DNA from: Parachlamydiales bacterium
GTDB taxonomy: Bacteria > Chlamydiota > Chlamydiia > Chlamydiales > SM23-39
Assembly: GCA_015661075.1 (NCBI GenBank)
Contig: JACVQJ010000003.1
Location: 28,623-92,622 of the forward strand
Reading direction: 5' to 3'
DNA: 64,000 nucleotides
The notes under the pieces: model-generated
Databases searched by the model: none
Told to the model about the DNA's origin: nothing
The model's input: the letters and a program-made list of their open reading frames with translations, nothing else
Shown here: positions 6,935 to 62,651 of the stretch, piece by piece
Layout: each line of letters starts with the position of its first letter
Position numbering within the stretch: the stretch's first letter is position 1
Position numbers and translations under genes: made by a program

Positions 6935-7112
6935 AATCATTCTCGAGCTAAAGGCTGTAGAAAAAGTCCTTCCCGTTCATGAGGCTCAGCTTTTGTCCTA
7001 TCTCCGACTATCAAACAAACAGGTGGGTCTCTTGATCAATTTTAACGTTCCTGTTCTCAAGAAACTTTTGGAAAACGCTGAGTTTAAAAGAACTGAGACG
7101 CCGAGACGCTGA
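6906..7112 (+). pseudogene. C-terminal remnant of a GxxExxY-family protein, 3' end fused to a palindromic repeat
   Basis: ..DEIILELKAVEKVLPVHEAQLLSYLRLSNKQVGLLINFNVPVLKK.. matches the conserved C-terminal half of GxxExxY proteins. The N-terminal half, including the GxxExxY motif, is absent. From codon 57 (nt 7074) onward the residues are encoded by repeat family F. Confidence 0.6.
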
Positions 7113-7332
7113 GAAAGAAAAAAATGCACAAGAGTGAGGGATACAAGCCGCCCATGTTTGCAAATGCATGCATGCGAAGCTGCGAAACTTTTAAGAAAGA
7201 AAGGGCACTTGAAAACCTGGCGTTAATTAGCCCCCTTTCTTTCTTAAAAGTTTCGCAGCTTCGCATGAAGAGCTTCGCTCAACATAGGCGGCCTCAGCGC
7301 CTCGGCGTCTCAGTTCTTTTAAACTCAGCGTT
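7074..7332. repeat. 259-bp nested palindromic element (family F)
   Basis: Outer 40-bp inverted repeat, 7074-7113 vs 7293-7332, with 1 mismatch (aacgctgagtttaaaagaactgagacgccgag..). Inner perfect 35-bp inverted repeat, 7171-7205 vs 7233-7267 (catgcgaagctgcgaaacttttaagaaagaaaggg). One copy in the window. No flanking direct repeat seen. Confidence 0.85.
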
Positions 7333-7389
7333 ATTCTCTAATAACCACTGAAGATGTGAAGGATGTTGATTTGGGATGTTAGCCATTAT

Positions 7390-7571
7390 CTCGACTTTGT
7401 ACATTTTTAGGGCCGCCTGCCTCGCCTATTTGCCCTCTGACGTTCGACCTCTGGTCGAACTAGACGTTTATTTAATAAGGAAGGGGATAGTCAACCCCCT
7501 TCCTTATTAAATAAACGCCTCTGAGGGCAAATATTTCGAGGCCTTCGCCCCTAAAAATGTACAAAGTCGAG
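7390..7571 (+). mobile_element. family A MITE-like palindromic element, copy 1 (182 bp)
   Basis: Terminal inverted repeats ctcgactttgtacatttttaggg.. / ..cctaaaaatgtacaaagtcgag. Internal 8-bp hairpin gttcgacc-tctg-ggtcgaac and a long central hairpin. Flanked by the perfect 5-bp direct repeat attat (7385-7389 and 7572-7576). Confidence 0.9.
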
Positions 7572-7600
7572 ATTATTGGCAAATATTTCGATTTTGTGCC

Positions 7601-7915
7601 ATGGATGAAATAAATGAGGAGCGAGATTCTATGGCCCAAGATATCTACTCACAGATGAGACAAGAGATCGCTTCTCTCTGGAAGATTCTTCAACATTCGT
7701 CGGGACATCGACTGCTTGATCGCAAAAGCGAGATTCATCGCAAACTTTCTGTTGTCAATGGATTCGCTACAAAAATCGGCGGCCGGATTCAGCGGGACTT
7801 TGATCAGTTAAAGCTGGATATCGATCGCTTTTTGCTGGGCGAGTTGACAACGGCTGAAATCACTCGAATGTTTCAGGACGTGTTGAAGATCGAGCAAGAT
7901 ACGAGAGAATTGTGA
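7601..7915 (+). CDS. small hypothetical protein (104 aa), helical/coiled-coil-like
   Basis: The only sizeable ORF in this gap, with a charged heptad-like composition. No recognisable motif. Confidence 0.5.
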   Translation: MDEINEERDSMAQDIYSQMRQEIASLWKILQHSSGHRLLDRKSEIHRKLSVVNGFATKIGGRIQRDFDQLKLDIDRFLLGELTTAEITRMFQDVLKIEQDTREL

Positions 7916-13959: not shown

Positions 13960-14026
13960 GAACCTGGTCCCCTTTAATTTTCTTCATAGGGGCTGTCAGG
14001 GAATAAAGTAAAGGCAACTGTTTAGA

Positions 14027-14196
14027 GAGCCATTCCCGATGTGCCTCTTCGACGATATTCGGAATCTTTTCGACGATTTTACGCCCATTTTTCCGAAGTC
14101 CATATAACTCAAGGAGATATTGGACTTCGGAAAATGGGGTAAACTCGTTCGAAAATATCCCGAATCTCCCCGAAGAATTCACATCGGGAATGGCTC
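14027..14196 (-). mobile_element. family B MITE-like palindromic element, copy 1 (170 bp)
   Basis: Terminal inverted repeats gagccattcccgatgtg / cacatcgggaatggctc. Imperfectly palindromic interior. Flanked by the perfect 5-bp direct repeat ttaga (14022-14026 and 14197-14201). Inverted relative to copy 2. Confidence 0.9.
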
Positions 14197-14203
14197 TTAG
14201 ATA

Positions 14204-26579: not shown

Positions 26580-26723
26580 TTGAACGCATTTCTTGCCGCA
26601 ATCCCACCCCTTCAGGGGTGGGTCTAGGCAAGATATTTTATTCGTGCGGTAAGCGGCTTTAGCCGCACCGCCTCCAAAAGCTACGTAAAGAATCTCCTCC
26701 TTTTAAGGAGGAGTTCTTCAAAA
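26580..26723 (-). repeat. family C multi-stem-loop repeat, copy 1
   Basis: As a reverse complement it matches 45750-45904 nearly base for base. It contains stems cccacccc/ggggtggg, gcggc/gccgc, cttgcc/ggcaag and ctcctcc/ggaggag. Confidence 0.85.
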
Positions 26724-26758: not shown

Positions 26759-26854
26759 CTCGACTTTGCAACTTTTTGGACCCGAAGGCCTCGAGATATT
26801 TGTTCTCGGAGCAAATAGACGAGGCAGGCGGGTCCAAAAAGTTGCAAAGTCGAG
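26759..26854 (-). mobile_element. family A element, short variant (96 bp) lacking the central module
   Basis: ctcgactttgcaactttttggacc..ggtccaaaaagttgcaaagtcgag. The arms are homologous to the two family A arm types. Flanking 5-mers attag / tttag match at 4 of 5 positions. Confidence 0.8.
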
Positions 26855-26980: not shown

Positions 26981-27934
26981 ATGGAAAGACATCACTTGGT
27001 AATCATTGGATCAGGACCGGCAGGTTATTGCGCGGCGATCTATGCGGCGCGAGCTAACTTGAAACCAGTTCTGTTCGAAGGTTTTATGTCGGGAACCGCA
27101 GGCGGACAGCTCATGATCACCACCGAAGTGGAAAATTACCCGGGTTTTCCCGATGGGATCCTGGGACCGCAATTGATGGAAAGCTTTCGAGCGCAGGCCA
27201 AGCGTTTCGGGACTGTCGTGTTCACAGAGGATGTTGAATCGATCGATTTGTCCAAAAAGCCGTTTTTTATCAAGAGCTCGCAGAACCAGATGTTAGCCGA
27301 TGCGATCATCATTGCGACAGGGGCTACGGCGAAGCGGATGGACATCGAGGGCACTCGCGACGGAGAGTTTTGGCAAAAGGGCGTGACGGCGTGCGCCGTA
27401 TGCGATGGGGCGGCGCCGATTTTTCGCAACAAACCGCTATTCGTGATCGGCGGCGGCGACAGCGCGGTTGAAGAAGCGATTTTTTTAACCAAATATGCCA
27501 GCCGTGTTTTTCTCGTCCACCGCCGCGATCAATTGCGAGCTTCGAAAATCATGGCGGCCCGCGCTCTGAAACATCCCAAGATTGAAGTACTCTGGAATCG
27601 GACCCTGGAAAAAGTACAGGGAGATCAGATCGTACGAAAGGTCATTTTACAAAACCTGTTGACCCATGAAATGGAACAGCGAGAGGCCGGCGGTGTATTT
27701 TTTGCCATCGGACATTCGCCCAACACAGTTTTTTTGCAAGGGCAGCTGAAATTGAATGATGCGGGATACATTGTTGTGAAGAAGGGAACTACATATACGA
27801 GCAAGGCGGGAATTTTTGCTGCGGGCGATGTGCAAGATCCAGTGTATCGGCAGGCGGTTACAGCAGCCGGCTCTGGATGCATGGCTGCGCTGGATGTCGA
27901 ACGGTGGCTGAGCAAAAAAGGAATTGTGGAATGA
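26981..27934 (+). CDS. trxB: thioredoxin reductase
   Basis: FAD motif GSGPAG, redox centre CAVCDG, NADPH motif [10 protein letters not shown]. Confidence 0.95.
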
Positions 27935-28746
27935 AGATTAAGGCAATCATCCTCAGCGTTTTGTTTTTTCCGGGGCTATGCCACAGTCTTGAAGTACAGC
28001 CATGGTTTGGCGACGTTTTTGAATTTCATTTTCTAGGTAGCTATGTTTACAGCCGTTTCAATAGCGTTCAGGGCGGAGATCCTCAGTTGAAGAGTCCTTT
28101 CAACTCAAATCTGGGTTATTTGGGATTGGAATTTTGTCCAACATCTGACTGGAGTATTGATGGCGATGTGCAGGTGGCGGATACGACGGCCGTGCCATTT
28201 AATTTTCGATCGGTGGCTCTGCAGCTGCGCTATCTATGGGCGGACGACATCGTTGGTAATCCTGTGACCTTTTCCACGGGAGCCAATTTCCGCGCTACTT
28301 CTGAGTCAGCCCTGCGCGATGTAAGCTGTCCTTCTCATGCCAATGTCGATTTTGAGATGAATTTTGCTCTTGGAAAGGAATTCGATGCTTCAGAGAGCTG
28401 GCGATGGCGGCTTTGGTGTTTTGGGGCTCTGGGTCAGGCGAATCGCGGATCGCCATGGGTGCGAGCGATGGCTGCCGTTGAAACGAACATCGATGATAAG
28501 CATAAATGGGGGCTTTTGGCGATAGGCAGCAATGGCTATGGCCGCCACTCTCATGTGAATACCGAACATTTTAACGGGTATGGAAAGATCCGGCAAAAAT
28601 CGATCGATGTGGGAATCCGCTACGGCTATCGCACAGGAGTCTGGGGGACGCTGCGCGTGGAATATCAACGGCGCGTCTTGGCAAAAGCATGTCCCCAGAA
28701 TGTTAACGCATTTATCTTTAGCTATTTGTTGCCATTCTCTCTTTAG
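27931..28746 (+). CDS. secreted hypothetical protein, possibly an outer-membrane beta-barrel
   Basis: Start moved to [19 protein letters not shown] (signal peptide), giving an ATGA overlap with the trxB stop. Alternating aromatic/polar beta-strand-like pattern. Ends ..[11 protein letters not shown]. Confidence 0.55.
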
Positions 28747-29180
28747 AAATCATCGTCCGGTACTTGTGGTGGAGAGGGGAGTCGGCGTCGAACAGCTTCC
28801 GGAAGCTCGATTGTGAACTCTTTCGCTTCAAGAATTTTAGGATTTCTTATCCTCTGCGCATTGCATTTTATCCATGCAAAAGCCTCTGTTACACAAGGGA
28901 ATTCCCTGTAAGACATGGATTGAGGTAAAAGAACATAGATATTCGGGGTATTATATCCTACGAAGCATAGGCCTGTAGCTGGGCGATCGCTTGAAAACTT
29001 ATTTGTTTCAAAAATCTTGTAAGTATTTATATTCCGTTCGTTCAGTCTTATCCATATAAAAGCCTCTTCTACGCGAGAGAATTCTTTGTAAGAAACGGAT
29101 GGAGGTGTGTGAATAGACGGAAGCTCGCCAATAGAACCGTGTCTGGTACTTAGGCTGTATTCAACAAGGAAAGCGGACAC
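28743..29180 (-). CDS. small hypothetical protein built from an internal tandem duplication
   Basis: 145 aa. ..PPSVSYKEFSRVEEAFIWIRLNERNINTYKIFETNKFS.. repeats as ..LPQSMSYREFPCVTEAFAWIKCNAQRIRNPKILEAKEFT... The DNA segments starting at 28861 and 29041 align with a 180-nt period. Confidence 0.55.
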   Translation of the reverse strand: MSAFLVEYSLSTRHGSIGELPSIHTPPSVSYKEFSRVEEAFIWIRLNERNINTYKIFETNKFSSDRPATGLCFVGYNTPNIYVLLPQSMSYREFPCVTEAFAWIKCNAQRIRNPKILEAKEFTIELPEAVRRRLPSPPQVPDDDF

Positions 29181-29184
29181 TTTA

Positions 29185-29565
29185 TTAACCTTTTTGTAAA
29201 CCGATCCAAATCGCTACGGCTGTAGCGTATTGCTCTGTATGGCTGATTGAAACGAGCAACGTGGGATCCTGAAATTCTTTTTTCAGAGGATCAGAAAGAT
29301 AGACGACGGGCTTGCCGTACTCGTCATTGAGAACCTCGATGTCGTGCCACTGGACTTTGGCTCCAAACCCGGTACCAAAAGCTTTGACGATGGCTTCTTT
29401 CGCCGCGAAGCGTCCGGCGAAATGGGGCATCGAGTCTTTGAACTTATTGCAGTAATCTTGTTCTTTCTTGGTAAAAATCCGGTTCAAAAAAGGCTGCCCC
29501 TGCCGTTCAATGCTTTGGCGCAATCTGGCCACTTCCAGAATGTCGTTTCCGATCCCTTGAATCAT
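29185..29565 (-). CDS. acpS: holo-ACP synthase
   Basis: 126 aa. N-terminal MIQGIGNDI.. motif and ..FAAKEA.. block. Confidence 0.9.
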   Translation of the reverse strand: MIQGIGNDILEVARLRQSIERQGQPFLNRIFTKKEQDYCNKFKDSMPHFAGRFAAKEAIVKAFGTGFGAKVQWHDIEVLNDEYGKPVVYLSDPLKKEFQDPTLLVSISHTEQYATAVAIWIGLQKG

Positions 29566-29571
29566 TTTTTT

Positions 29572-30645
29572 TTATGGCTGTTCGTCGTTATCGTCGTGCG
29601 GATGGTAATCCCCTTCTTCATCCATGGCGTTGCAGAAAATCATGCGGCCCGAAGAGGTGTGTTTAACCGACAAAACCAATGCATCGATAGTATCCCCGAT
29701 GAAAGCGCCGCCGCCGTTCACGACGACCATCGTGCCGTCTTCGAGATATCCGACTCCCTGGCGCGGCTCTTTGCCAAAGCGCTGGATTTTGATCTTGATC
29801 CTCTCGCCGGCTTGCATTAATGGCTTCAAGGCGTTCGAAAGAGCGTGAATATTGATAATGCGCACACCTTCAATCGCAGAGATCTGGACGCGGCTGATGT
29901 CCGCCGTTAAAATATTTCCATCGAGGAGGCGCGCAAGTCTGAGCAGTTTGCTCATAAAATCTTTGACTTCAGGAAAGTCGGTGTCGTTATAGCGCATTTC
30001 CAGACCGGGGAGTTGTTCGAGTTTTTTCACAACTTCCAGAGCGCGTTTGGCTTTGTTGCGCAACATTTCATCGCTGGCCTCTGACTGGGCATAAAGATCT
30101 TTCAAGAGAAAACGGGGTAAAACCAGATGGTGATCGATCATCCCGGAAGATGCCAAATCGATGATGCGGGCATCCGCTAAAACGGAAGAATCGATGATCA
30201 GATCTTTCTTTTTCTGAGCGGTCGGAGTGAATTTGACGAACGGAATGGACACATAAAGCTCATCGGACGCCCGCAGCGTCATGATTGTGCCGAGATAAGT
30301 GCCGAAGAGAAACAGACAGATTTTGACGATTTCCAGAATTTGGCTATTTAAATGAATGCTGGCGGCGGAGATGTCGAGTACTGCCCGAAAGATCAATACC
30401 AGCGCTTCGCCCATGAAGAAGCCGATGAACAATCCGATGATGGCGATGTTGAACGAGCGCAGGTTGAACCGTTTGAAGAGAAGATCAAAGCCGATGAGCA
30501 AGAAACCGAGAAGCGATCCGAGTCCGACGCCCATGAGTAAGTTGGGGAAGGTGTAGCCGGAATCGCCGGAGATCATGTAGGTAGTAATAAAAAAAATGCA
30601 CAGTATGAAAAAGAATAACCTGGTGAAGGCCAATGCGATGTTCAT
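29572..30645 (-). CDS. membrane-anchored PIN + TRAM domain protein (YacL-like)
   Basis: Start moved to MNIALAFTRLFFF (30645). Four N-terminal TM helices, a PIN-like core (..LIIDSSVLADARIIDL..) and a C-terminal TRAM-like barrel (..GVGYLEDGTMVVVNGG..). Confidence 0.75.
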   Translation of the reverse strand: MNIALAFTRLFFFILCIFFITTYMISGDSGYTFPNLLMGVGLGSLLGFLLIGFDLLFKRFNLRSFNIAIIGLFIGFFMGEALVLIFRAVLDISAASIHLNSQILEIVKICLFLFGTYLGTIMTLRASDELYVSIPFVKFTPTAQKKKDLIIDSSVLADARIIDLASSGMIDHHLVLPRFLLKDLYAQSEASDEMLRNKAKRALEVVKKLEQLPGLEMRYNDTDFPEVKDFMSKLLRLARLLDGNILTADISRVQISAIEGVRIINIHALSNALKPLMQAGERIKIKIQRFGKEPRQGVGYLEDGTMVVVNGGGAFIGDTIDALVLSVKHTSSGRMIFCNAMDEEGDYHPHDDNDEQP

Positions 30646-30868
30646 ATTTTTTTTTCCTGTATTTGGGTCTTCATCCCATCGAGAAGGCTTTTTTTGTGAA
30701 AAAGCGCTCTTCAAGGATAGTTTACTTAAATCTGGGTAGTTTGTCCTTATTTAGGTTAGCAAAATGCTCTGATGAAATAAATCATCTTGTACATCTGTCC
30801 AGCCATAAAAAATTGAATTGTAGTTTGCTCGGCGTTTTTTTGTCGACCATACAAAGAAAAAAAAATCC

Positions 30869-31291
30869 TCACTTGTGATATGGAGATTTTTTAGAGATCT
30901 CCAGGGAGCGGTAGATCTGTTCGATTAGCACAAGTCGGGTCAATTGATGGGTAAAAGTTAGTGGGGAAAGACTCCATTTTAAGTATGCCTTTTGCAGCAG
31001 ATCTGTTGGAAAGCCGTTGGGGCCTCCAATCGCGAACGTAATTCGGCTGCCGGTTTTTTCAATGGCCTGAAGCAGGTGTTGACTGAATGCGATGCTATCA
31101 TAAGAAATGCCTGCCGGATCAAGCGCGATAAAAGTTTCATTTCGAAGCAAAAGAGGAAGCTGACTGTCATCGTCCGCCTGAATCCAGCTCATCTGTAAAA
31201 GGGGCGAAAGTCGCTTTTCGTATTCTGCGATTGCGATCCTGAGCCACTCTTCTTTGCATTTTCCGACCGCGATCACTTTGACTTTAAACAT
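30869..31291 (-). CDS. rlmH: 23S rRNA (pseudouridine1915-N3)-methyltransferase, SPOUT family
   Basis: 140 aa. MFKVKVIAVGKCKEEWLRIAIAEYEKRL.. and the C-terminal ..LSLSPLTFTHQLTRLVLIEQIYR.. are typical of RlmH. Confidence 0.85.
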   Translation of the reverse strand: MFKVKVIAVGKCKEEWLRIAIAEYEKRLSPLLQMSWIQADDDSQLPLLLRNETFIALDPAGISYDSIAFSQHLLQAIEKTGSRITFAIGGPNGFPTDLLQKAYLKWSLSPLTFTHQLTRLVLIEQIYRSLEISKKSPYHK

Positions 31292-31317
31292 GTTTTTGCC
31301 ATCCTAGGAGAGTAAAA

Positions 31318-31497
31318 CTCGACTTTGTACATTTTTAGGGCCGCCTGTCTCGCCTATTTGCCCCCTGACGTTCGACCTACGGTCGAACTAGGCGTTAATT
31401 TAAGAAGGAAGGGGATAGTAACCCCTTCCTTCTTAAATTAACGCCTCAGAGGGCAAATATTTCGAGGCCTTCGGCCCTAAAAATGTACAAAGTCGAG
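31318..31497 (+). mobile_element. family A MITE-like element, copy 2 (180 bp)
   Basis: Same architecture as copy 1. Lies 26 nt from the rlmH start and 15 nt from the lgt start. Flanking 5-mers taaaa / taaag match at 4 of 5 positions. Confidence 0.9.
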
Positions 31498-31512
31498 TAA
31501 AGGGTAAACGCA

Positions 31513-32409
31513 ATGATATTGTCTCAAATTCCCCATCATTTCACGTCAATAGCTGTATTTCATTGGGATCCAGATCCAGACCTTTTCATTATCCCTGGTC
31601 TGAACTGGCCCATCAAGTGGTATGGTCTTCTTTTCGCGCTGGGTTTTGCTGTCGGCTTTACCATTTTTCAAGCCATTGTCTATCGCTATCTTTTACAAGT
31701 GTCTGATTGTGAAAATCAGCGTTTAAAGGAAATGGCACTCAAAATGACCGATCGCATCACTCTTTATGCCGTTGTTGGAACCGTCATAGGAGCGCGATTG
31801 GGCCATTTTATCTTTTATGAAAATCCTTCCCTCTATATTACCCATCCTCTGGAAATATTGCGAGTATGGAATGGAGGATTGGCCAGTCATGGGGCAGCGA
31901 TTGGCATCATTGCTGCAATTGTTTTATTTTCCCGTTACTCAAAAACGATTGAACCCGGATTAACCTGGATTCGATTGTTGGATTTTATTTGTGTTCCGAC
32001 CGCTTTGGCCGGCGCGTTGATCCGCTGGGGCAATTTTATCAATCAAGAGATTCTAGGTACGAAGAGTGCGCTTCCATGGGCCGTTGTTTTCGGCCATCCG
32101 GCCGATCACAGCTTCCCTGCCCCTCGCCATCCCGTTCAGCTCTATGAATCTTTTTTTTATCTGATCGTCTTTTTGATACTCTGGCATCTGAGCTATCGGC
32201 GGAAATATCTGCTAAGACAAGGATGGCTGATCGGTCTGTTTTTGATCCTTGTTTTCGGATATCGCTTTTTCATCGAGTATTTCAAGATTGAACAGAGCCA
32301 TCTTGTATCCGCAGCCCATCAGCTGACGATGGGACAGTGGCTTAGCATCCCGCTGGTCATCATGGGAGCTTTGTTGATGTTTTTTTCAAAGCGATCGGCC
32401 AAGAGTTAA
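31513..32409 (+). CDS. lgt: prolipoprotein diacylglyceryl transferase
   Basis: Polytopic, 298 aa, with Lgt blocks (..GGLASHGAAIG.., ..RHPVQLYES..). Confidence 0.9.
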   Translation: MILSQIPHHFTSIAVFHWDPDPDLFIIPGLNWPIKWYGLLFALGFAVGFTIFQAIVYRYLLQVSDCENQRLKEMALKMTDRITLYAVVGTVIGARLGHFIFYENPSLYITHPLEILRVWNGGLASHGAAIGIIAAIVLFSRYSKTIEPGLTWIRLLDFICVPTALAGALIRWGNFINQEILGTKSALPWAVVFGHPADHSFPAPRHPVQLYESFFYLIVFLILWHLSYRRKYLLRQGWLIGLFLILVFGYRFFIEYFKIEQSHLVSAAHQLTMGQWLSIPLVIMGALLMFFSKRSAKS

Positions 32410-32804
32410 TGATTCTTGGGTCGATAAGCGATGCAAGAGATTTCTATGGGCGAGTCTAGCGGCAGTTTGGCCACCTGGATCGTTTGCCTGGCTGGCGGCG
32501 GCGAATGGTTAAAACGCTCGCCATAGGTCCGATTGAATGCCGGGAATTGGGCCAGGTCTTTTAAAAATACATCTGTTTTTACGACATGCTCCAATGTCAA
32601 ATGGGCGGAGGCCAAAATCGCTTCCAGATGATCGATGACTTTGTGGGTCATCGCTTCGATATCTCCGCTGATGAGCTGGTCAGTTTTGGGATCGATCGGC
32701 AGCTGCCCGGAAACAAAGACATATTCACCTGCTTTGATTCCCTGGGAATAAGGCCCGATCGCTTTCGGAGCATGCTCGCTATAAATTTTTTCGGTTTTTC
32801 GCAT
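32406..32804 (-). CDS. ridA: RidA/YjgF-family reactive-intermediate deaminase
   Basis: 132 aa. ..APKAIGPYSQGIKAGEYVFVSGQLPIDP.. and ..PARQTIQVAKLPLDSPIEI.. are classic YjgF blocks. Confidence 0.9.
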   Translation of the reverse strand: MRKTEKIYSEHAPKAIGPYSQGIKAGEYVFVSGQLPIDPKTDQLISGDIEAMTHKVIDHLEAILASAHLTLEHVVKTDVFLKDLAQFPAFNRTYGERFNHSPPPARQTIQVAKLPLDSPIEISCIAYRPKNH

Positions 32805-32854
32805 AGTTACCTTTAAAAAATTAAATTATGTCTTTTGGTGTGGATTTCCTCAAG

Positions 32855-33023
32855 GAGCCATTCCCGATGTGAATTCTTCGGGGAGATTCGGGATATTTTC
32901 GAACGAGTTTACCCCATTTTCCGAAGTCCAATATCTCATTGAGTTATATGGACTTTGGAAAATGGGCGTAAAATCGTCGAAAAGATTCCGAATATCGTCG
33001 AAGAGGCACATCGGGAATGGCTC
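32855..33023 (+). mobile_element. family B MITE-like element, copy 2 (169 bp)
   Basis: Same termini as copy 1, in opposite orientation. Flanked by the perfect 5-bp direct repeat tcaag (32850-32854 and 33024-33028). Confidence 0.9.
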
Positions 33024-33094
33024 TCAAGAGTTTGCTTGACCCGATAACGGGGGGCAGAGGATAATGGGCGCATAAGAATTGATAGGGGGATGGT

Positions 33095-33565
33095 ATGAAT
33101 TTTCTTACGATTGCGGGCCATTTAGGCGCTGATCCGGAAGTGCGGTTTATTTCATCGGGCAAAAAAGTGACGACCATGCGCGTCGCTACGAATACGCGCC
33201 GCAATGGCGCCGACGACACGATCTGGTGGCGAGTGACGATCTGGGGCGAGCAATTCGATAAAATGATTGCTTTTTTCAAAAAAGGCAGTGCGATCGTGGT
33301 ATTTGGAGAACTCCAAAAACCGGAAATTTTTACCGGCCGCGATGGCAAGCCGCAAATCTCTATGAATATTACGGCGTCGAGCATTCAATTCAGCCCATTC
33401 GGAAAACCTGATCGCCAGGGTCAAGGCCAAGAGGGGGCTAGTTCAGCGCCCGGAGCCGCTCCGTTTGGTGCGACGGGCGATAATGTAAACAATCCCTACG
33501 TGCCGCCCATTCAGTCGGGCAAGGCGCCGATTGGTGAGACGGTTGATGATGAAGTCCCATTTTAA
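33095..33565 (+). CDS. ssb: single-stranded DNA-binding protein
   Basis: OB-fold N-terminus (MNFLTIAGHLGADPEVRF..), a Gly/Pro/Gln-rich linker and the acidic tip ..DDEVPF. Confidence 0.95.
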   Translation: MNFLTIAGHLGADPEVRFISSGKKVTTMRVATNTRRNGADDTIWWRVTIWGEQFDKMIAFFKKGSAIVVFGELQKPEIFTGRDGKPQISMNITASSIQFSPFGKPDRQGQGQEGASSAPGAAPFGATGDNVNNPYVPPIQSGKAPIGETVDDEVPF

Positions 33566-39895: not shown

Positions 39896-40558
39896 ATGGA
39901 CATAGTCCTTTGCAAGGCAAGTAGAATATTTAATTGTAGGTTTTGTATCAAAGAAATATTGGAATTACTACAGATTGCAGACCGTCTTCTCGGCCCTGGA
40001 GGTTGTCCCTGGGACCGGGAACAAACGTTATTGACCCTGCAAAAATATCTGTTGGAAGAGACGCACGAGCTCATTGAGGCTATCGATCGGGATGATTCCG
40101 GGCAAATTGTTGAGGAGATGGGCGATGTATTGTTTTCTCTCATTTTTATAGGAAAATTGGGTGAAAAAGCCAATCGATTTACATTCAACGATGCGGTTCA
40201 GTGTGTTTGTGAAAAACTGATTCGGCGCCATCCCCATATTTTTGCAGGCGTGAGCGTGAATGGCGTCGATGACATCGTTCAGAACTGGGAAGCCATCAAG
40301 AAGAAAGAAAAAGAGCGGAAAACGATTTTTGAGGGGATCCCTCCCACATTGCCGATTTTGGCCCGGGCGCAAAAAATGATTGAAAAGCTTCAGCGCCACA
40401 AAAGTTCATTGGCACCCATCGGATCTGGCCAGAAAGTTTCTGAAGAGGAAGTGGCGAGACGTTTATGGGAGTTGCTGGGACAGGCCCAAAGTTCAGGGGT
40501 CGATGCCGAGTCAGCCTTGCGCCGTTATTGTCAGCAGATAAAAAACACCGGAGAGTGA
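39896..40558 (+). CDS. mazG: nucleoside triphosphate pyrophosphohydrolase MazG
   Basis: ..GGCPWDREQTLLTLQKYLLEETHELIEAI..EEMGDVLF..RRHPHIF... The true start may be TTG at 39959; only 34 bp separate ATG 39896 from the divergent gene. Confidence 0.85.
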   Translation: MDIVLCKASRIFNCRFCIKEILELLQIADRLLGPGGCPWDREQTLLTLQKYLLEETHELIEAIDRDDSGQIVEEMGDVLFSLIFIGKLGEKANRFTFNDAVQCVCEKLIRRHPHIFAGVSVNGVDDIVQNWEAIKKKEKERKTIFEGIPPTLPILARAQKMIEKLQRHKSSLAPIGSGQKVSEEEVARRLWELLGQAQSSGVDAESALRRYCQQIKNTGE

Positions 40559-40645
40559 TCCGCGGCAAAAACTGAATCCTTAAGGCTGCTACCTTCCGGT
40601 CCTGACCTGGTTCAGATTGCTTATCCCGCGAGTTCCCCGGTGAAA
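40548..40645 (-). ncRNA. ffs: signal recognition particle RNA (4.5S/SRP RNA)
   Basis: The minus strand reads ..cgcgggataagcaatctgaaCCAGGTCAGGACCGGAAGGTAGCAGCCttaaggattcagtttttgccgcgg... The capitalised block is almost identical to the E. coli 4.5S domain IV core (CCAGGUCAGGUCCGGAAGGAAGCAGCC) with its GGAA tetraloop. Flanking strands pair (tctgaa/ttcag, cgcgg/ccgcg). Ends are approximate, and the 3' end overlaps the mazG stop. Confidence 0.8.
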
Positions 40646-42933: not shown

Positions 42934-42987
42934 TAAAACTCTAGCAAGAAAACGAATTCAAACGCTATATCATATATGATTCAGCAT

Positions 42988-43167
42988 CTCGACTTTGTTC
43001 ATTTTTAGGGTCGAAGGCCTCGATGGATTTGCCCTCTGAGGCGTTCATGTAAGAAGGAAGGGGGTGACTATCCCCTTCCTTCTTACATGAACGCCTAGTT
43101 CGACCAGAGGTCGAACGTCAGAGGGCAATAGGCGAGGCAGGCGGCCCTGAAAATGTACAAAGTCGAG
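42988..43167 (-). mobile_element. family A MITE-like element, copy 3 (180 bp, inverted orientation)
   Basis: Same termini and modules as copies 1 and 2, but reverse-complemented. Lies 54 nt from the ruvB start and 21 nt from the dcd start. Flanking 5-mers agcat / aacat match at 4 of 5 positions. Confidence 0.9.
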
Positions 43168-43188
43168 AACATAACAAAGGTGGTTTTC

Positions 43189-43755
43189 ATGTTACAGTCA
43201 GATCGATGGATTCGGAAAATGGCGCTCGAGCATGGAATGATCGAGCCGTTTGTAGACCGGCAGATGAGAGCTACCGAAGGGAGCAAGATCGTTAGCTTTG
43301 GATTGTCGAGTTATGGATATGATTTGCGCGTCGCTGATGAATTCAAGGTGTTTACCAATGTGTATAACTCGATCGTCGATCCCAAGAATTTTCGCGACGA
43401 TTCTTTTGTCACTTTCAAGAATGCATCGACGTGCATTATTCCGCCGAATTCCTTTGCCCTGGCCCGAAGCATCGAATATTTTCGCATTCCGCGGAATGTA
43501 TTGACCCTCTGTATTGGGAAGTCGACGTATGCCAGGTGTGGAATCATTGTCAATGTGACTCCGTTCGAACCCGAATGGGAAGGTACGGTCACTCTCGAAA
43601 TTTCCAATACAACCCCCCTTCCGGCGAAGATTTATGCCGGGGAAGGACTCGCTCAAGTCCTCTTTTTTGAGGCCAAAGAAGCGTGCGAGGTTTCATATGC
43701 TGATCGTAAAGGTAAGTATATGAAGCAGATGGAAATAACTTGTCCACGTATTTGA
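43189..43755 (+). CDS. dcd: dCTP deaminase
   Basis: ..[16 protein letters not shown].. and the rest are typical of Dcd. Start moved to [12 protein letters not shown] (43189), because the listed [12 protein letters not shown] extension is encoded by the family A repeat terminus. Confidence 0.9.
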
Positions 43756-43851: not shown

Positions 43852-44130
43852 ATGAGGAAACTTTTTGTTCACTCATGGTGGGCGGTTGTGTTTTCTACGC
43901 TGTGCATCGCGTTCTATTTTCAGGCGGCGCACAGCCGCTCTACAGTGCTTTTCGATCTATCTTCGCGCATGCAGGATATGGAGCAGGAAAAGTTGATCGT
44001 CGCGCAAGAGCAGGATGAACTAAATCTCCGCCTGCAATCTGAATCCGATCCGGCCTGGATTGAAATGACCCTGATGAAAGAACTCGGCGTAGTGCCCGAG
44101 GGTTGGACGAAGGTCCATTTCCAGAAGTAA
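43852..44130 (+). CDS. FtsB/DivIC-like septum-formation initiator (bitopic coiled-coil protein)
   Basis: Start taken at MRKLFVHSWWAVVFSTLCIAFYF (a single TM). A coiled-coil follows, with the ..DPAWIEMTLMKELGVVPEG.. C-terminus typical of the family. Confidence 0.55.
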   Translation: MRKLFVHSWWAVVFSTLCIAFYFQAAHSRSTVLFDLSSRMQDMEQEKLIVAQEQDELNLRLQSESDPAWIEMTLMKELGVVPEGWTKVHFQK

Positions 44131-44177
44131 CAGTAATTTCAGCTAGCTATTCCTACCTTGCCGGCATCAGCCGTGGT

Positions 44178-44369
44178 CTTTAAGGATAGGAGTTCTTCGA
44201 CAGCTAATGGCGGGCGCTTAAAAGCGACCGATAAAATAAATAGCTCGGCTTACCCGCCCCTGAAGGGGCGGGATTGCGCTTCGAGCAAGCTGTTCAAAGG
44301 CACTTGTGATGGGAAGCTGTGCTGCTTAGAAGTGACCAGATGCCTGGAACGACAAAGAAAGAAAAGGGG
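44178..44369 (+). repeat. family C (diverged) + module D repeat, copy 3
   Basis: Collinear with 45750-45973. Module D (44301-44369) is nearly identical to 45905-45973. The C part is diverged, but its stems are preserved by paired substitutions. Confidence 0.8.
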
Positions 44370-44557
44370 ATTCCCTTCCCAGGAAGAGACGCGAATCCGT
44401 TTTTGATTAATAAAAGCGCAAAAACTCTCGAAAAGGCAAAAGGGACTGTTGGAAGAGGTCGTCGGCCAGAACGAGGCCGATCAGATCAGCTATCTCAATC
44501 GCGAAGAGTTGCTCGCCGTTTTCGAGACGATCTGGAAAGGCGTTTCTCAGCGTCTTT

Positions 44558-45616
44558 TCAAAAGCAAATGCGCTTGTTCAGATTCGGGATTTTTAGGGGT
44601 GGTGGTGGTGAGAGTTTTTTCTGAGTTAATTGGGAGGTAAGGCGTAAGGATTTGAGCGTTTTATTTAATTCGAATAACTCTTTTTTGTCAGCTTTAATTT
44701 GTGTGTTGATTATTGCATATTTTTTATAATGAAGCTCGCATGTATTTCTATTAGAGAGATTCTCAAATTCGAGAGTTTCAATTTGTTGAGCAACTGAATT
44801 ATTGCTAGCGGTGGAACTTGAAAAGCTATCAGTGAGCCCTTCTTTCTTATTGTCAGTTGGAGTGGGCATTATAGTTGTGCGTCGTTGGCTAAGATTTATG
44901 GGAAATTCGGACTTTTTAGGAGGGGTGGGGATATTATTTTTTTCTGAGTCATCTGAGCCAATAGGTGTTGATGAGATAACTGTTGGGGATTCGGGCATAT
45001 GTTTAATTGGCTTTAAATTTTCTTTGAGGCCTGTAATTCCATCAGTAATAACTATATGTTTATTTATATCACGGGTATAATTATCATAATGAGTATCGGC
45101 TATTTTTTGATTTAAGACCAGCGCTTCTTCGAGATCTGAAATTCGTTTTATAATTTCCTTCTCATTGGTAGGGAGGGAACTTCGAATGTCAATAGGGATC
45201 TCTTTAACGGCGCTCGATTCGTTAGTTGGAATATCCTTTTCAATTTTATCTACAATTTTTTTAGCAAGAGTTTCACGGAACAAATCTGATATCCGATTTT
45301 GCAAAATAAGCGATCCTATCTTCTTGGCGCTTTTTAGAATCATGCTATTGTCTGTTTTTTTGTCGGTAATTTTATAGGCAAGATCTACAATATCTTGAGT
45401 AAGATTGTCTAAGCCATTATCGTTATATATTTGGGTGTTTTTATCCCAGGTTTTTAACAAATGACTAAAAGCCACTTTTGCGAGGTTTCTGATCTCCTGA
45501 TTGATTTTTCTATCAAATAACGTTGAAAGTCGGATGCAAAAACGTTTAAAAAACCCAGGGATTGCAAAATTGCTAGAGTATGTTGTTAAACTAGTTGGGC
45601 TTAATGCAGGATTCAT
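44558..45616 (-). CDS. hypothetical protein (352 aa) in a visibly AT-rich segment; effector-like low-complexity protein
   Basis: Asn/Lys/Ile/Ser/Thr-rich sequence, a Pro-rich C-terminal region (..KLSPPPPLKIPNL..), no signal peptide and no TM. Composition contrasts with neighbouring genes. Bracketed by the C+D direct repeats. Confidence 0.6.
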   Translation of the reverse strand: MNPALSPTSLTTYSSNFAIPGFFKRFCIRLSTLFDRKINQEIRNLAKVAFSHLLKTWDKNTQIYNDNGLDNLTQDIVDLAYKITDKKTDNSMILKSAKKIGSLILQNRISDLFRETLAKKIVDKIEKDIPTNESSAVKEIPIDIRSSLPTNEKEIIKRISDLEEALVLNQKIADTHYDNYTRDINKHIVITDGITGLKENLKPIKHMPESPTVISSTPIGSDDSEKNNIPTPPKKSEFPINLSQRRTTIMPTPTDNKKEGLTDSFSSSTASNNSVAQQIETLEFENLSNRNTCELHYKKYAIINTQIKADKKELFELNKTLKSLRLTSQLTQKKLSPPPPLKIPNLNKRICF

Positions 45617-45749
45617 AATTAACCTCTATATTATCTATGTCTTATACATATATTATATAATAAATTAATAATAATGTAAAGGATGTAATAAGTCTTTATA
45701 TAGCGTGGTTGCGCTAAGTGTATCGCGCTTATAGTAAGCGACTTAAAAT

Positions 45750-45973
45750 GATAGGAGTTTGAAGAACTCCTCCTAGAAAGGAGGCGATTCTTTAAGTAGC
45801 TTTTGGAGGCGGTGCGGCTAAAGCCGCATACCGCATCTCATAAAATAGCTTGCCTAGACCCACCCCTAAAGGGGTGGGATTGCGGCAAGCAGTGCGTTCA
45901 ATGGCACTTGTGATGGAAAGACGTGCTGCTTAGAAGTGACCAGATGCCTGGAACGACAAAGAAAGAAAAAGGG
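45750..45973 (+). repeat. family C + module D repeat, copy 2
   Basis: Contains stems ctcctcc/ggagg, gcggc-taaa-gccgc, gcttgcc..ggcaagc and cccacccc-taaa-ggggtggg, followed by module D cacttgtgatgg..aaagaaagaaaa. Confidence 0.85.
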
Positions 45974-45995
45974 ATAAATATTAACTTCTTTGGTA

Positions 45996-46055
45996 AGGGA
46001 CTGTAATAGAGTAGAGGAGTTAAGCGATTAACTCCTCTACTCTATTACAGTCCCT
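45996..46055. repeat. perfect 28-bp-stem hairpin with 4-nt loop
   Basis: agggactgtaatagagtagaggagttaa-gcga-ttaactcctctactctattacagtccct. There is no U-tract on either side, so it is not a standard terminator. Confidence 0.9.
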
Positions 46056-49936: not shown

Positions 49937-50720
49937 TATTTATGAGGGGTTCCAAGCTGTTGTTATTGTAATTTAGGGCCACCTCTTCAGCTGCCGAAAT
50001 CATTAAAACGGTGATGTTATCACCACCGCCCATTATTTTAGCGCAATCAATCATTTTTTGAGCTGCTTTGTCCATCGAGCGAGAGTTTCGCAAAATCTTT
50101 TGCAGCTCGTCTTTGGAAACGGCATCAGACAAACCATCGCTGCAGAGGAGATACAAATCCTGGGGATCATGCTGAGAAAAGGAAATCTCCGGATTCGCAG
50201 CTCGAGGGGTGCCTATGGCGCGGGTGATGATGTTTTTAGGCGGCGTGGGCTGCTTGGGCCTCTTTTTTGAAAGCCAGCGAGCCAGTAGAGAATGATCGCG
50301 GGTCAGCAGTTCCAGCCGGTCATTGCGAAAGCGGTAGATTCTACTGTCTCCGACATGGGCGTAATAGATGATTGAATCGGTCCATAACACACAGCAAATG
50401 GTCGTCCCCATTCCATGGAGTGATTCGCTGCCGCAGCCCATTTTGTATACCCATCGATTGGCTAGTTCGATGGATTCGCGCAGTTGATGTGAGTAATCGA
50501 TTTTGTCTTCAAATTGCCGGGTGGTTTCCCAGAGCTGGCGCATTGATTCGCAAAGGATCTGCACGGCTTCTTTCGCCGCAACATCTCCCGCCCGCCGGCC
50601 GCCCATCCCGTCGGCCAGAACAAAAAACCCCCATTCCGGTTTGGCTGCCCAGACATCCTGATTGATCAATCGGTTGAGGCCGATATCAGATAAGCCGTAA
50701 TAATGAAGTGAGGACTGCAT
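49914..50720 (-). CDS. bacterial PP2C-family Ser/Thr phosphatase (Stp/PrpC-like)
   Basis: ..YGLSDIGLNRLINQD.., ..LADGMGGRRAGDVAA.., ..YAHVGDSRIY.., ..LLCSDGLSD.., ..GGGDNITVLMI... The 3' end overlaps the desulfurase start by 23 nt. Confidence 0.88.
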   Translation of the reverse strand: MQSSLHYYGLSDIGLNRLINQDVWAAKPEWGFFVLADGMGGRRAGDVAAKEAVQILCESMRQLWETTRQFEDKIDYSHQLRESIELANRWVYKMGCGSESLHGMGTTICCVLWTDSIIYYAHVGDSRIYRFRNDRLELLTRDHSLLARWLSKKRPKQPTPPKNIITRAIGTPRAANPEISFSQHDPQDLYLLCSDGLSDAVSKDELQKILRNSRSMDKAAQKMIDCAKIMGGGDNITVLMISAAEEVALNYNNNSLEPLINNGTALPR

Positions 50721-50736
50721 CGAGCATCCTTGTTAA

Positions 50737-50895
50737 CTCGACTTTGTACATTTTTAGGGCCGCCTGCCTCGCCTATTTGCCCTCTGTCGTTCGACCTCTG
50801 GTCGAACTAGGCGTTTATTTAAGAAGGAAGGGGATTAAACGCCTCAGAGGGCAAATCCATCGAGGCCTTCGGCCCTAAAAATGTACAAAGTCGAG
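50737..50895 (+). mobile_element. family A MITE-like element, copy 4 (159 bp, central stem half-deleted)
   Basis: Termini are intact. The right arm of the central hairpin is missing. Flanked by the perfect 5-bp direct repeat gttaa (50732-50736 and 50896-50900). Lies 16 nt from the PP2C start and 1 nt from the CPBP stop. Confidence 0.9.
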
Positions 50896-50896
50896 G

Positions 50897-51748
50897 TTAA
50901 GTTCCCAAAAAGTATAAATTAGCAATACTTAACGCGTTAAATGCCGCATGCAAAATCATTGATGCGAGCAAGGATCCCTGTCTTTCATACACATACCCTA
51001 AAAATATGGAGAAGATGAAGAGAGATCCAATGATCGGGATATTGCCCAAGCCCTGTTCGTTGGAGTAATGAAAGAGCGCAAAACAGGCTGAGGCGATCAG
51101 AATGGCCGCGGGTGCATTGAAATAGCGGCGTAAATATGTTTGAAGAAACCCTCGAAACAGAATCTCTTCGATGACAGGAGCAAAAATGATGATCGAAAAG
51201 ATAGCCATGAAAAAATAGAGCGGTTTTCCAAATGTCATTTTGAGGAAGAGAATGATGAGCTGATCCGGAAGCTCGAAAGTGTGAAAAATGAAATAAACGG
51301 CCAGTTCGAGAAATTGTCCGGCAAAAATGACGACGGGGAATGCGATGAGGCAAGCTGCAAGAGCAGTGATTGCGTCGTTTTTCAGAGGATTATCGGGATT
51401 GCGGCGCCAAATCGTTTGCCGGATGGGGTGGAAAATTCCCCGTGAGAAAAGCCAGATGCATGTAATGGCTGATGTACTGGTCAAAAATGTGACCCAGGTC
51501 CCGATGCCGATGCGGTCTTGCAGGCCCCATTGAATGATCAGGTGGGTAAAAATAGCCGGCAGGAAGAGATTAACGGCAAAATAGATAACGAAAGCGATCA
51601 AAACGAGTAGAAAAGGCGGGGGGCAGATCGGTGGGGGCGAATTTTGCCAGCGAAAAAAAAAGCCTTTGCGAAAGGCAATCCACAATATCACAAAAGATAC
51701 AGCGGCGGAGAGAATCGCTCCCTCCACCTCTGATGTGAGCGATGTCAT
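50897..51748 (-). CDS. CPBP-family intramembrane glutamic endopeptidase (CAAX protease/Abi)
   Basis: Polytopic, with the motifs ..EEILFRGFLQ.., ..FALFH.. and ..HAAFN... Confidence 0.85.
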   Translation of the reverse strand: MTSLTSEVEGAILSAAVSFVILWIAFRKGFFFRWQNSPPPICPPPFLLVLIAFVIYFAVNLFLPAIFTHLIIQWGLQDRIGIGTWVTFLTSTSAITCIWLFSRGIFHPIRQTIWRRNPDNPLKNDAITALAACLIAFPVVIFAGQFLELAVYFIFHTFELPDQLIILFLKMTFGKPLYFFMAIFSIIIFAPVIEEILFRGFLQTYLRRYFNAPAAILIASACFALFHYSNEQGLGNIPIIGSLFIFSIFLGYVYERQGSLLASMILHAAFNALSIANLYFLGT

Positions 51749-62415: not shown

Positions 62416-62478
62416 ATAAAATCCAGTAAAAAAATATATGCAGAAAAGTCCCCAAAGAAATGGACGACTCGAATCGAT

Positions 62479-62645
62479 GCGAAGGGCTCCACGCATTGCG
62501 TGACAGTGTTAATCCTTTCGCAATTAACACTACGGAGCTGTCTAATAATAAACTGATATGATTTCGGCGCTTATCTCCTGGACACTGCTTCCATGGCGTT
62601 GGGATGCCTCGACAGTGCTTGTTAGTAAGCGCACCTCTTCTGCGG
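62479..62645 (-). promoter_or_regulatory. candidate lysine riboswitch (L-box-like) leader of the LysP-like permease
   Basis: The minus-strand RNA gcAGAAGAGGUGCGCuuacuaacaAGCACUGUC..cagugu..uaaGCGCCGAAAuc..GUGUUAAUugcgaaaggAUUAACACUGUCACGCAaugCGUGGAGCCCUUCGC shares the order and sequence of L-box core blocks as I remember them: AGAGGUGCG, GCUGUC, GCGCCGAAG, and hairpin + ACUGUCACG + hairpin + GAGAGCC. P3 would be unusually short. Confidence 0.55.
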
Positions 62646-62651
62646 TCACTG

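Follow-up and report, generated by a model that had tools for sequence, protein, structure and literature searches.

Five copies of a short non-coding repeat, which we call family A, lie in a 64-kb stretch of contig JACVQJ010000003.1 from a Parachlamydiales bacterium; the whole of this stretch is referred to here as the window (GC content ~49%). Four of the copies are ~180 bp in length and one is 96 bp. A preliminary description, made from the letters of the window, had listed these five and interpreted them as copies of a miniature inverted-repeat transposable element (MITE). Sequence reading, a repeat finder and an nhmmer profile were concordant in giving the same five copies, with no further copies or fragments in the window. 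Family A has no coding capacity, and contributes only spurious starts of open reading frames (ORFs), for example the ATG at 43153.

The reference copy is full-length (31318–31497, 180 bp, plus strand; nhmmer E = 4.8e-56) and lies between the divergent genes rlmH (start 31291, minus strand) and lgt (start 31513), bracketed by TAAAA (31313–31317) and TAAAG (31498–31502), which match at 4 of 5 positions. A second full-length copy (7390–7571, 182 bp, plus strand) has a perfect duplication, ATTAT (7385–7389 and 7572–7576), and is positioned 29 nt upstream of a 104-aa ORF at 7601. This copy adjoins a near-perfect palindrome of 259 bp that lies directly upstream of it (7074–7332; identity 98% for the 40-nt outer arms, 100% for the 35-nt inner arms), present as a single copy in the window. 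The third full-length copy is inverted (42988–43167, 180 bp, minus strand), is flanked by AGCAT and AACAT, and separates divergent ruvB (start 42933) and dcd (start 43189). The copy at 50737–50895 (159 bp, plus strand) has lost 21–23 nt of the central hairpin, corresponding to one side plus the loop, and is bracketed by a perfect duplication, GTTAA (50732–50736 and 50896–50900), that includes the stop codon of the upstream gene (50897–51748, minus strand); it sits 16 nt before the PP2C start at 50720. Finally, the 96-bp short form (26759–26854, minus strand) is reduced to termini and arms, both hairpin modules being absent; it has flanks ATTAG and TTTAG, and its neighbours are a 928-aa gene (start 26515, minus strand) and trxB (start 26981). 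The flanking 5-mers are thus as originally reported, two perfect and three matching at 4 of 5 positions.

At up to 3 mismatches, the 23-mer CTCGACTTTGTACATTTTTAGGG has 8 matches in the window, which form four inward-facing inverted pairs (shuffles expect 0), and the 23-bp terminal inverted repeats are perfect in three of the four long copies. In the reference copy, the left repeat, CTCGACTTTGTACATTTTTAGGG, occupies 31318–31340 on the plus strand and is the presumed site of transposase binding and cleavage, while the right repeat occupies 31475–31497 on the minus strand and reads CCCTAAAAATGTACAAAGTCGAG on the plus strand. The statement that all copies have the same inverted repeats needs qualifying for the 96-bp form, which ends in a co-varied variant, CTCGACTTTGCAACTTTTTGGAC (TGCAAC), with the complementary change at both ends.

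Duplications, empty sites and spread

A degenerate form of the terminus was scanned across one genome per species and matched at least 103 stretches; the counts of duplications, size classes and positions given here rest on those listed. Elements were counted as complete when their termini paired within 50–320 nt, and the 5 nt outside each end were compared. A first survey found a perfect 5-bp duplication in 25 of 42 elements. In the full survey, which drew on many genomes, 32 of the 56 complete elements had a perfect 5-bp duplication and 12 of 56 matched at 4 of 5 positions, compared to 0–3 perfect matches among the 56 in each of ten offset controls with one flank shifted by 1–5 nt. An independent set was obtained from a metagenome scan with the exact terminus of the window, which gave 18 loci, nearly all from one sample (Ga0206225); perfect duplications were present in 9 of the 14 complete copies from Ga0206225. 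With this large excess of matches, the flanking duplication is genuine and 5 bp in length, and the preliminary description was right to regard the 5-bp repeats as target-site duplications. Reconstruction of the target gives nTWAn: of 32 sites, 29 have T at position 2 and 26 have A at position 4.

The scan also revealed how widely the family is distributed. Full-length homologues of ~180 nt account for ~35 of the at least 103 terminus-matching stretches; they are 73–82% identical and occur at unrelated loci in many metagenome-assembled genomes (MAGs) of Parachlamydiales, Rhabdochlamydiaceae and other chlamydiae. Several of the host MAGs are labelled Verrucomicrobia. Since SurE of the most copy-rich of these is closest to proteins of Parachlamydiales and Rhabdochlamydiaceae, and since 'Candidatus Acheromyda' is a chlamydial genus, we treat the 180-nt family as chlamydial and claim no spread outside Chlamydiota. 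The Ga0206225 loci hold at least 20 copies, 91–97% identical to those of the window, and therefore belong to the same or a sister genome. Mean pairwise identity is 93% among 17 full-length copies taken from the window together with the Ga0206225 loci, and the MGME01 copies are nearly identical in an alignment of 33 copies; both observations suggest that amplification was fairly recent, and a supplier of transposase is therefore to be expected, now or in the past. No description of this terminus, of a chlamydial MITE or of an IS701-derived MITE of this form was found in the literature, of which our coverage is incomplete, and family A is apparently undescribed so far in environmental chlamydiae.

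Orthologous sites that lack the element were found at two of the five window loci, as would be expected from the mobile element proposed at the outset. Locus L036, from a chlamydial MAG (CG10), is syntenic with window positions 26981–33433, and its rlmH and lgt starts are ~25 nt apart with no element between them, compared to 221 nt in the window; removal of the element and one duplicate from the window spacer leaves 36 nt. For the ruvB/dcd locus, relatives were drawn from the 90% protein cluster of dcd. In two of these, L110 (dcd 95% identical) and L111 (94%), the ruvB-dcd spacer has no element and retains a conserved 37-nt block of the window. Judged only from gene coordinates, the spacer of a JGI contig (dcd 91% identical) is 80 nt. 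An exact-match search of metagenomes for the predicted empty site of the 50737 copy gave no match. The 37-nt block itself, aaaactctagcaagaaaacgaattcaaacgctatat (window 42934–42970), is 95% identical in L110, where the flanking genes are 71–80% identical at the DNA level, and may be a candidate conserved operator or promoter.

These data bear on the possibility that family A is a non-mobile, vertically inherited intergenic palindrome, either regulatory or similar to the repetitive extragenic palindromic (REP) elements and bacterial interspersed mosaic elements (BIMEs), with flanking repeats that arose by accident. Family A is indeed palindromic, intergenic and multi-copy, and one position may be common to two genomes. 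A partial copy (one terminus and an arm) at L036 7557–7628 lies 62 nt upstream of trxB, and the short form of the window lies 127 nt upstream of the same gene. The two copies have different flanks and a different left neighbour, and we read them as probably independent insertions. REP elements are not known to make duplications. They are 20–40 bp long with GTAG/CGTC heads (PMC3733652), and neither this size and head nor the lack of duplications fits family A, which is 180 bp long, starts with CTCGAC and has 5-bp duplications. Given also the very large duplication excess, the insertion sites that differ among genomes, the existence of empty sites and termini that equal those of an autonomous element, an immobile palindrome is extremely unlikely.

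Termini of an IS701-family insertion sequence

The terminus of family A, in the form CTCGACTTTGTACATTTTT(A/G)GG, also bounds a 1.8-kb insertion sequence (IS) in Alphaproteobacteria (Rhodobacteraceae and Parvibaculaceae). The preliminary description had proposed a search for a full-length IS with the same terminal repeats, and this element, of the IS701 family and with 5-bp duplications, is what the search returned. Contig L083 (Loktanella, 1803 bp) is the whole IS end to end, bounded by CTCGACTTTGTACATTTTTGGG and TGTACAAAGTCGAG. The protein it encodes, 460 aa long, falls under 'IS701 family transposase' (NCBIfam NF049999; E = 2.5e-96, 323 bits; cut-off 170 bits) and also matches Pfam DDE_5 (E = 5e-25). 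The left end of family A is identical to the left end of the alphaproteobacterial IS at 21 of 22 nt, the difference being at position 20 (A/G), and IS with termini matching family A at 21–22 of 22 nt were seen in L083 and L071. Both ends of family A resemble the left end of the IS through 22 nt; the right end of the IS matches over only ~16 nt.

A chromosomal copy of the IS in Marivita (1800 bp) carries a perfect 5-bp duplication, TTCAG. The terminus core CTCGACTTTGnnCA and perfect 5-bp duplications are also kept by plasmid-borne relatives in Rhizobium (70% aa identity; CCAAG) and Skermanella (42% aa identity; ATGAC), and the core is retained in relatives from Roseomonas and Gloeocapsa. Elements of this IS701 clade also contain a conserved antisense ORF of ~100 aa (L083 24–326, minus strand; also in L071, L045 and L027), which ends just inside the left terminus of the IS (...FIANEGIFWTWT*) and could be a passenger or accessory gene.

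Family A termini were also found around other interiors. Ktedonobacteria harbour elements of 95 nt and 264–272 nt with unrelated interiors, termini identical to that of family A at 22 of 22 nt and 5-bp duplications, and in some chlamydial MAGs interiors of 156, 162 and 164 nt lie between family A termini. The common termini and duplication length are thus the signature of one IS701 clade, on which several independent MITE families have been built; it is only the termini that are common to several phyla (Alphaproteobacteria, Ktedonobacteria and chlamydiae). In Dictyobacter arantiisoli (L003, L025, L041, L069, L078, L081 and L087), many of the 95-nt MITEs occur 7 nt after a conserved GGAATCAAACACT, with a complementary sequence apparently on the far side. 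These MITEs seem to have entered the middle of another palindromic repeat, a hint that targets may be preferred for their structure.

The excess of matching flanks, the empty sites, and an IS with the same termini and duplication length all uphold the initial view of family A as a MITE. We consider it very likely that it is a MITE built on ~22-bp ends that are recognised by the DDE transposase of one IS701-family clade. In this model, a transposase supplied in trans would bind the two identical ends, and the element would be moved or copied into a staggered 5-bp cut at an nTWAn target, the repair of which would duplicate the 5 bp. The hairpin architecture would be kept either because it aids propagation of the element or because folding copies are tolerated in transcripts. 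Copies would persist only in the short intergenic spacers of a compact genome, in the 5' untranslated regions (UTRs) of divergent genes or on stop codons, and a stop codon hit by an insertion would be regenerated by the duplication.

A tblastn search of the 64-kb window gave no IS701-type transposase (best E 0.87), so that the earlier statement that no transposase is encoded there is supported for this type, the only one searched. IS701-family transposases were likewise not found in 145 kb of Ga0206225 loci or in ~70 chlamydial loci of 8 kb, the tblastn matches being alphaproteobacterial only. Inspection of partnerless termini and adjacent ORFs gave housekeeping genes, the end of a leucine-rich repeat protein gene, and IS630-like and Rpn-like ORFs, with no IS701 among them. 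A large protein search with the transposase returned only close relatives, of which the named ones were alphaproteobacterial (Sphingobium, Mesorhizobium). The terminus pairs of L042 and L066 were examined as 3.5-kb composite elements and rejected, as they enclose ordinary genes and belong to separate elements.

The absence of an IS701 transposase near any chlamydial copy examined could be explained by mobilisation through another family that makes 5-bp duplications, with a coincidental likeness of the termini to IS701. One example would be a Tn3-derived inverted-repeat miniature element (TIME), since Tn3-family transposons, too, typically leave a 5-bp duplication. TIMEs resemble family A in being non-autonomous with 5-bp duplications, but their terminus sequence is unrelated. 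Tn3-type termini are ~38 bp in length and start with GGGG, and those of family A start with CTCGAC. Moreover, the termini of family A match those of the IS701-clade IS at 21–22 of 22 consecutive nt, and even relatives with only 42% protein identity still have the core CTCGACTTTGnnCA. By our estimate, ~9 chance matches to this 22-mer pattern would be expected in the 596-Gb collection, compared to the at least 103 stretches observed, which cluster in a few lineages. Mobilisation by a family other than IS701 is accordingly rated as very improbable.

Some points weigh against the reading of family A as a MITE of the IS701 family. No IS701-family transposase lies near any chlamydial copy in the window, the 145 kb of Ga0206225 or the ~70 loci, and the best organism-named relatives of the transposase are all from Alphaproteobacteria. 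Because of this absence, mobilisation in trans within chlamydiae is what we infer; the partner there, presumably an enzyme of this clade, may be extinct or highly diverged. The position upstream of trxB is possibly one that the window and L036 have in common. Lastly, column identity is ~84% over the whole 180 nt across deep chlamydial lineages, which exceeds what transposase binding needs, and more than a simple MITE may be acting.

Hairpin core and neighbouring genes

Inside the terminal repeats, the reference copy consists of a left subterminal arm (31341–31368, plus strand), which pairs imperfectly with the right subterminal arm (31447–31474, plus strand) as helices 2–4, and of two hairpin modules on the plus strand. 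The side hairpin, GTTCGACC-TAC-GGTCGAAC (31370–31388; helix 5), has compensatory changes in 2 of 6 pairs; it is the sole asymmetric module of family A and sets the orientation of the element. The central 25-bp hairpin (31390–31446; helix 6) has compensatory changes in 11 of 20 pairs and a near-invariant GGAAGGGG/CCCCTTCC apex. The predicted fold of the reference copy is one long hairpin, for which the energy is −124 kcal/mol in RNA and −78 kcal/mol in DNA (z = −20 and −19, respectively).

The hairpin is maintained by compensatory change. In an alignment of 33 full-length copies from ~20 genomes, the consensus comprises 59 pairs, and 95.6% of cells are paired, compared to 36–53% with partners slid by 1–3 columns. 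Changes on both sides were found in 26 pairs, the termini included (TGTACA/TGTACA versus TGCAAC/GTTGCA), and in 500 shuffles the covariation score, the percentage paired and the counts of both-side changes all stayed below the observed values. G-U intermediates are rare in these stems, a pattern explained by complementarity in the DNA, or by selection acting on the two strands, no less well than by RNA from one strand.

Size classes follow this near-perfect palindrome. Deletion derivatives of 46 nt contain the termini only, those of 75–101 nt the termini and arms, and those of 123–125 nt the termini, arms and side hairpin; larger classes are of 159, 180 and 202 nt, the last with an internal duplication. 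The smallest derivative, L039 6319–6364 (46 nt), has two termini back to back with a 2-nt spacer. As short forms bear perfect duplications, the core is dispensable for insertion.

All five window copies are intergenic and four lie 16–54 nt from a start codon, in line with what had been read from the window, where 8 of 10 flanks face a start codon. The accompanying generalisation that copies are always beside gene starts did not extend to other genomes: among 45 chlamydial copies (simple ORF calls), a 5' gene end was next to 42 flanks and a 3' end next to 32, with no general bias. Of the 32 3' flanks, 12 are within 7 nt of a stop codon, because TAA and TAG are contained in the nTWAn pattern and an interrupted stop is rebuilt by the duplication. 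Scans of the element for consensus promoters and for intrinsic terminators gave nothing above shuffle expectation, and Rfam 15 gave no match to family A at the gathering score, only sub-threshold chance matches within the element. The ancestral spacers of the divergent pairs were 25–36 nt, and hence the element probably now lies between gene and promoter or is transcribed as a leader. Of the claim that copies must lie in promoters or 5' UTRs, a place in the 5' UTRs is still likely for the divergent pairs; the idea that copies drive adjacent genes is unsupported, since the element contains no consensus promoter.

The ATG in the right terminus was predicted to create a false extension of dcd, and this proved correct. 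It opens an ORF (43153–43755) that lengthens dcd by 12 codons; one automated Logan gene call has this 200-aa form, and the NCBI record has 188 aa.

In addition to being mobile, family A could have been co-opted by the host. The hairpin core would then be a structured RNA or DNA module with control over how strongly neighbouring transcripts are expressed or how stable they are, for example a 5'-UTR structure, a site for RNase III or for protein binding, or a bidirectional attenuator. This proposal adds to the MITE reading and draws on the ~84% identity over the entire 180 nt, the 26 compensated pairs, the near-invariant GGAAGGGG/CCCCTTCC apex and the extreme predicted fold (z ~−20), as well as on the very short rlmH/lgt and ruvB/dcd spacers, in which a copy would be transcribed or lie between promoter and gene. 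Several findings speak against it. The element contains no consensus promoter or terminator beyond shuffle expectation and matches no Rfam family; the adjoining genes are functionally unrelated; there is no bias in orientation or towards start codons; forms of 46–159 nt without the core carry perfect duplications; and the near absence of G-U intermediates fits DNA palindromy or both-strand selection equally or better. On balance, we regard co-option as unlikely. We are similarly doubtful of the more specific possibility that the core is a chlamydial functional module (a structured leader or processing site), or a hairpin that binds a host factor needed by the IS701-clade transposase. If true, a functional core would explain how ~180 nt remain ~80% identical across chlamydial families whose proteins are 50–70% identical.

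Known elements and other repeats in the window

Family A resembles MITEPye1, Correia and RUP elements in being small and non-coding, with terminal inverted repeats, duplications, many copies, mostly intergenic positions, a long hairpin and termini in common with an autonomous IS. The parent of RUP in Streptococcus pneumoniae is IS630, and no parent IS is known for the Correia elements of Neisseria. The duplication of family A, 5 bp at nTWAn, differs from the TA of the bacterial MITEs compared, and its host range, environmental chlamydiae, and a core unusually conserved and co-varying across deep lineages also set it apart from other bacterial MITEs. MITEPye1 of Paracoccus yeei was defined by just this set of shared features (PMC11578231), and each of these sequence-level features of a bacterial MITE is found in family A, the parent family being IS701 rather than the IS1182 of MITEPye1. 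Family A is a well-supported element of an ordinary kind and represents no new kind of system.

IS701 elements of the NF049999 clade (Loktanella, Marivita, Roseovarius, Rhizobium, Sinorhizobium and Skermanella) have family A-like termini and 5-bp duplications. These alphaproteobacterial elements are autonomous, 1.8 kb in length, and code for a DDE transposase of 460 aa, with a small ORF on the antisense strand, whereas family A is non-coding and has no sequence similarity to them beyond the termini. Members of the IS701 family transpose actively and have been described as replicative in Deinococcus (PMC8944449).

A further likeness is to short palindromic repeats in the genomes of obligate intracellular bacteria. 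The Rickettsia palindromic elements (RPEs), and the MITEs of Orientia (PMC2575882) and Wolbachia, have spread in the compact genomes of such bacteria. RPEs often lie in frame within genes and are not known to have a clear signature of inverted repeats and duplications or a transposase. Family A differs from RPEs in that all copies seen are intergenic, with clear ends and duplications.

The family has practical consequences for environmental chlamydiae. It breaks short-read assemblies: Logan contigs end inside the element, as seen in SRR13434397 for L104 (1–27) and L105, which carry rlmH and lgt and stop inside its terminus. False start codons arise from it, the 200-aa dcd call being one case, and it puts 180-nt hairpins into tiny spacers of essential divergent genes or onto stop codons. 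For these reasons, family A should be masked and annotated in chlamydial MAGs. The 93% identity among copies and the presence or absence of copies between close relatives point to recent transposon activity in an obligate intracellular lineage. Family A ties this activity to an IS701 clade with 22-bp ends that have hardly changed across Alphaproteobacteria, Ktedonobacteria and chlamydiae. The 33 diverged full-length copies with compensated stems are also a natural data set on how the fold of a palindromic MITE is maintained.

Other repeats were observed in the window. A second MITE-like family of ~175 bp is represented by two mutually inverted copies, 96–100% identical (14026–14200 and 32851–33024), with inverted ends, GAGCCATTCCCGATGTG, unlike those of family A and with duplications that look to be 4 bp (TTAG/TTAG and CTTG/CTTG). 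A third family of ~145 nt with three short hairpins (cccacccc.../gcggctttagccgc/ctcctcc...ggaggag) occurs at window positions 26580–26722 and 45758–45901, at L129 1832–1974 and at L116 4186–4329; in the window and L129 it lies 11–36 nt from a family A copy, suggesting that repeats pile up in the same spacers. An 80-nt direct repeat (44292–44371 and 45896–45975; 94% identity, 1.6 kb apart) is located in the stretch of lowest GC in the window (44000–46000, 40.5%). Above the gathering score, Rfam matched the window at two places only, a lysine riboswitch (62474–62647, minus strand; 52 bits) and a small signal recognition particle RNA (40543–40642, minus strand; 51 bits).

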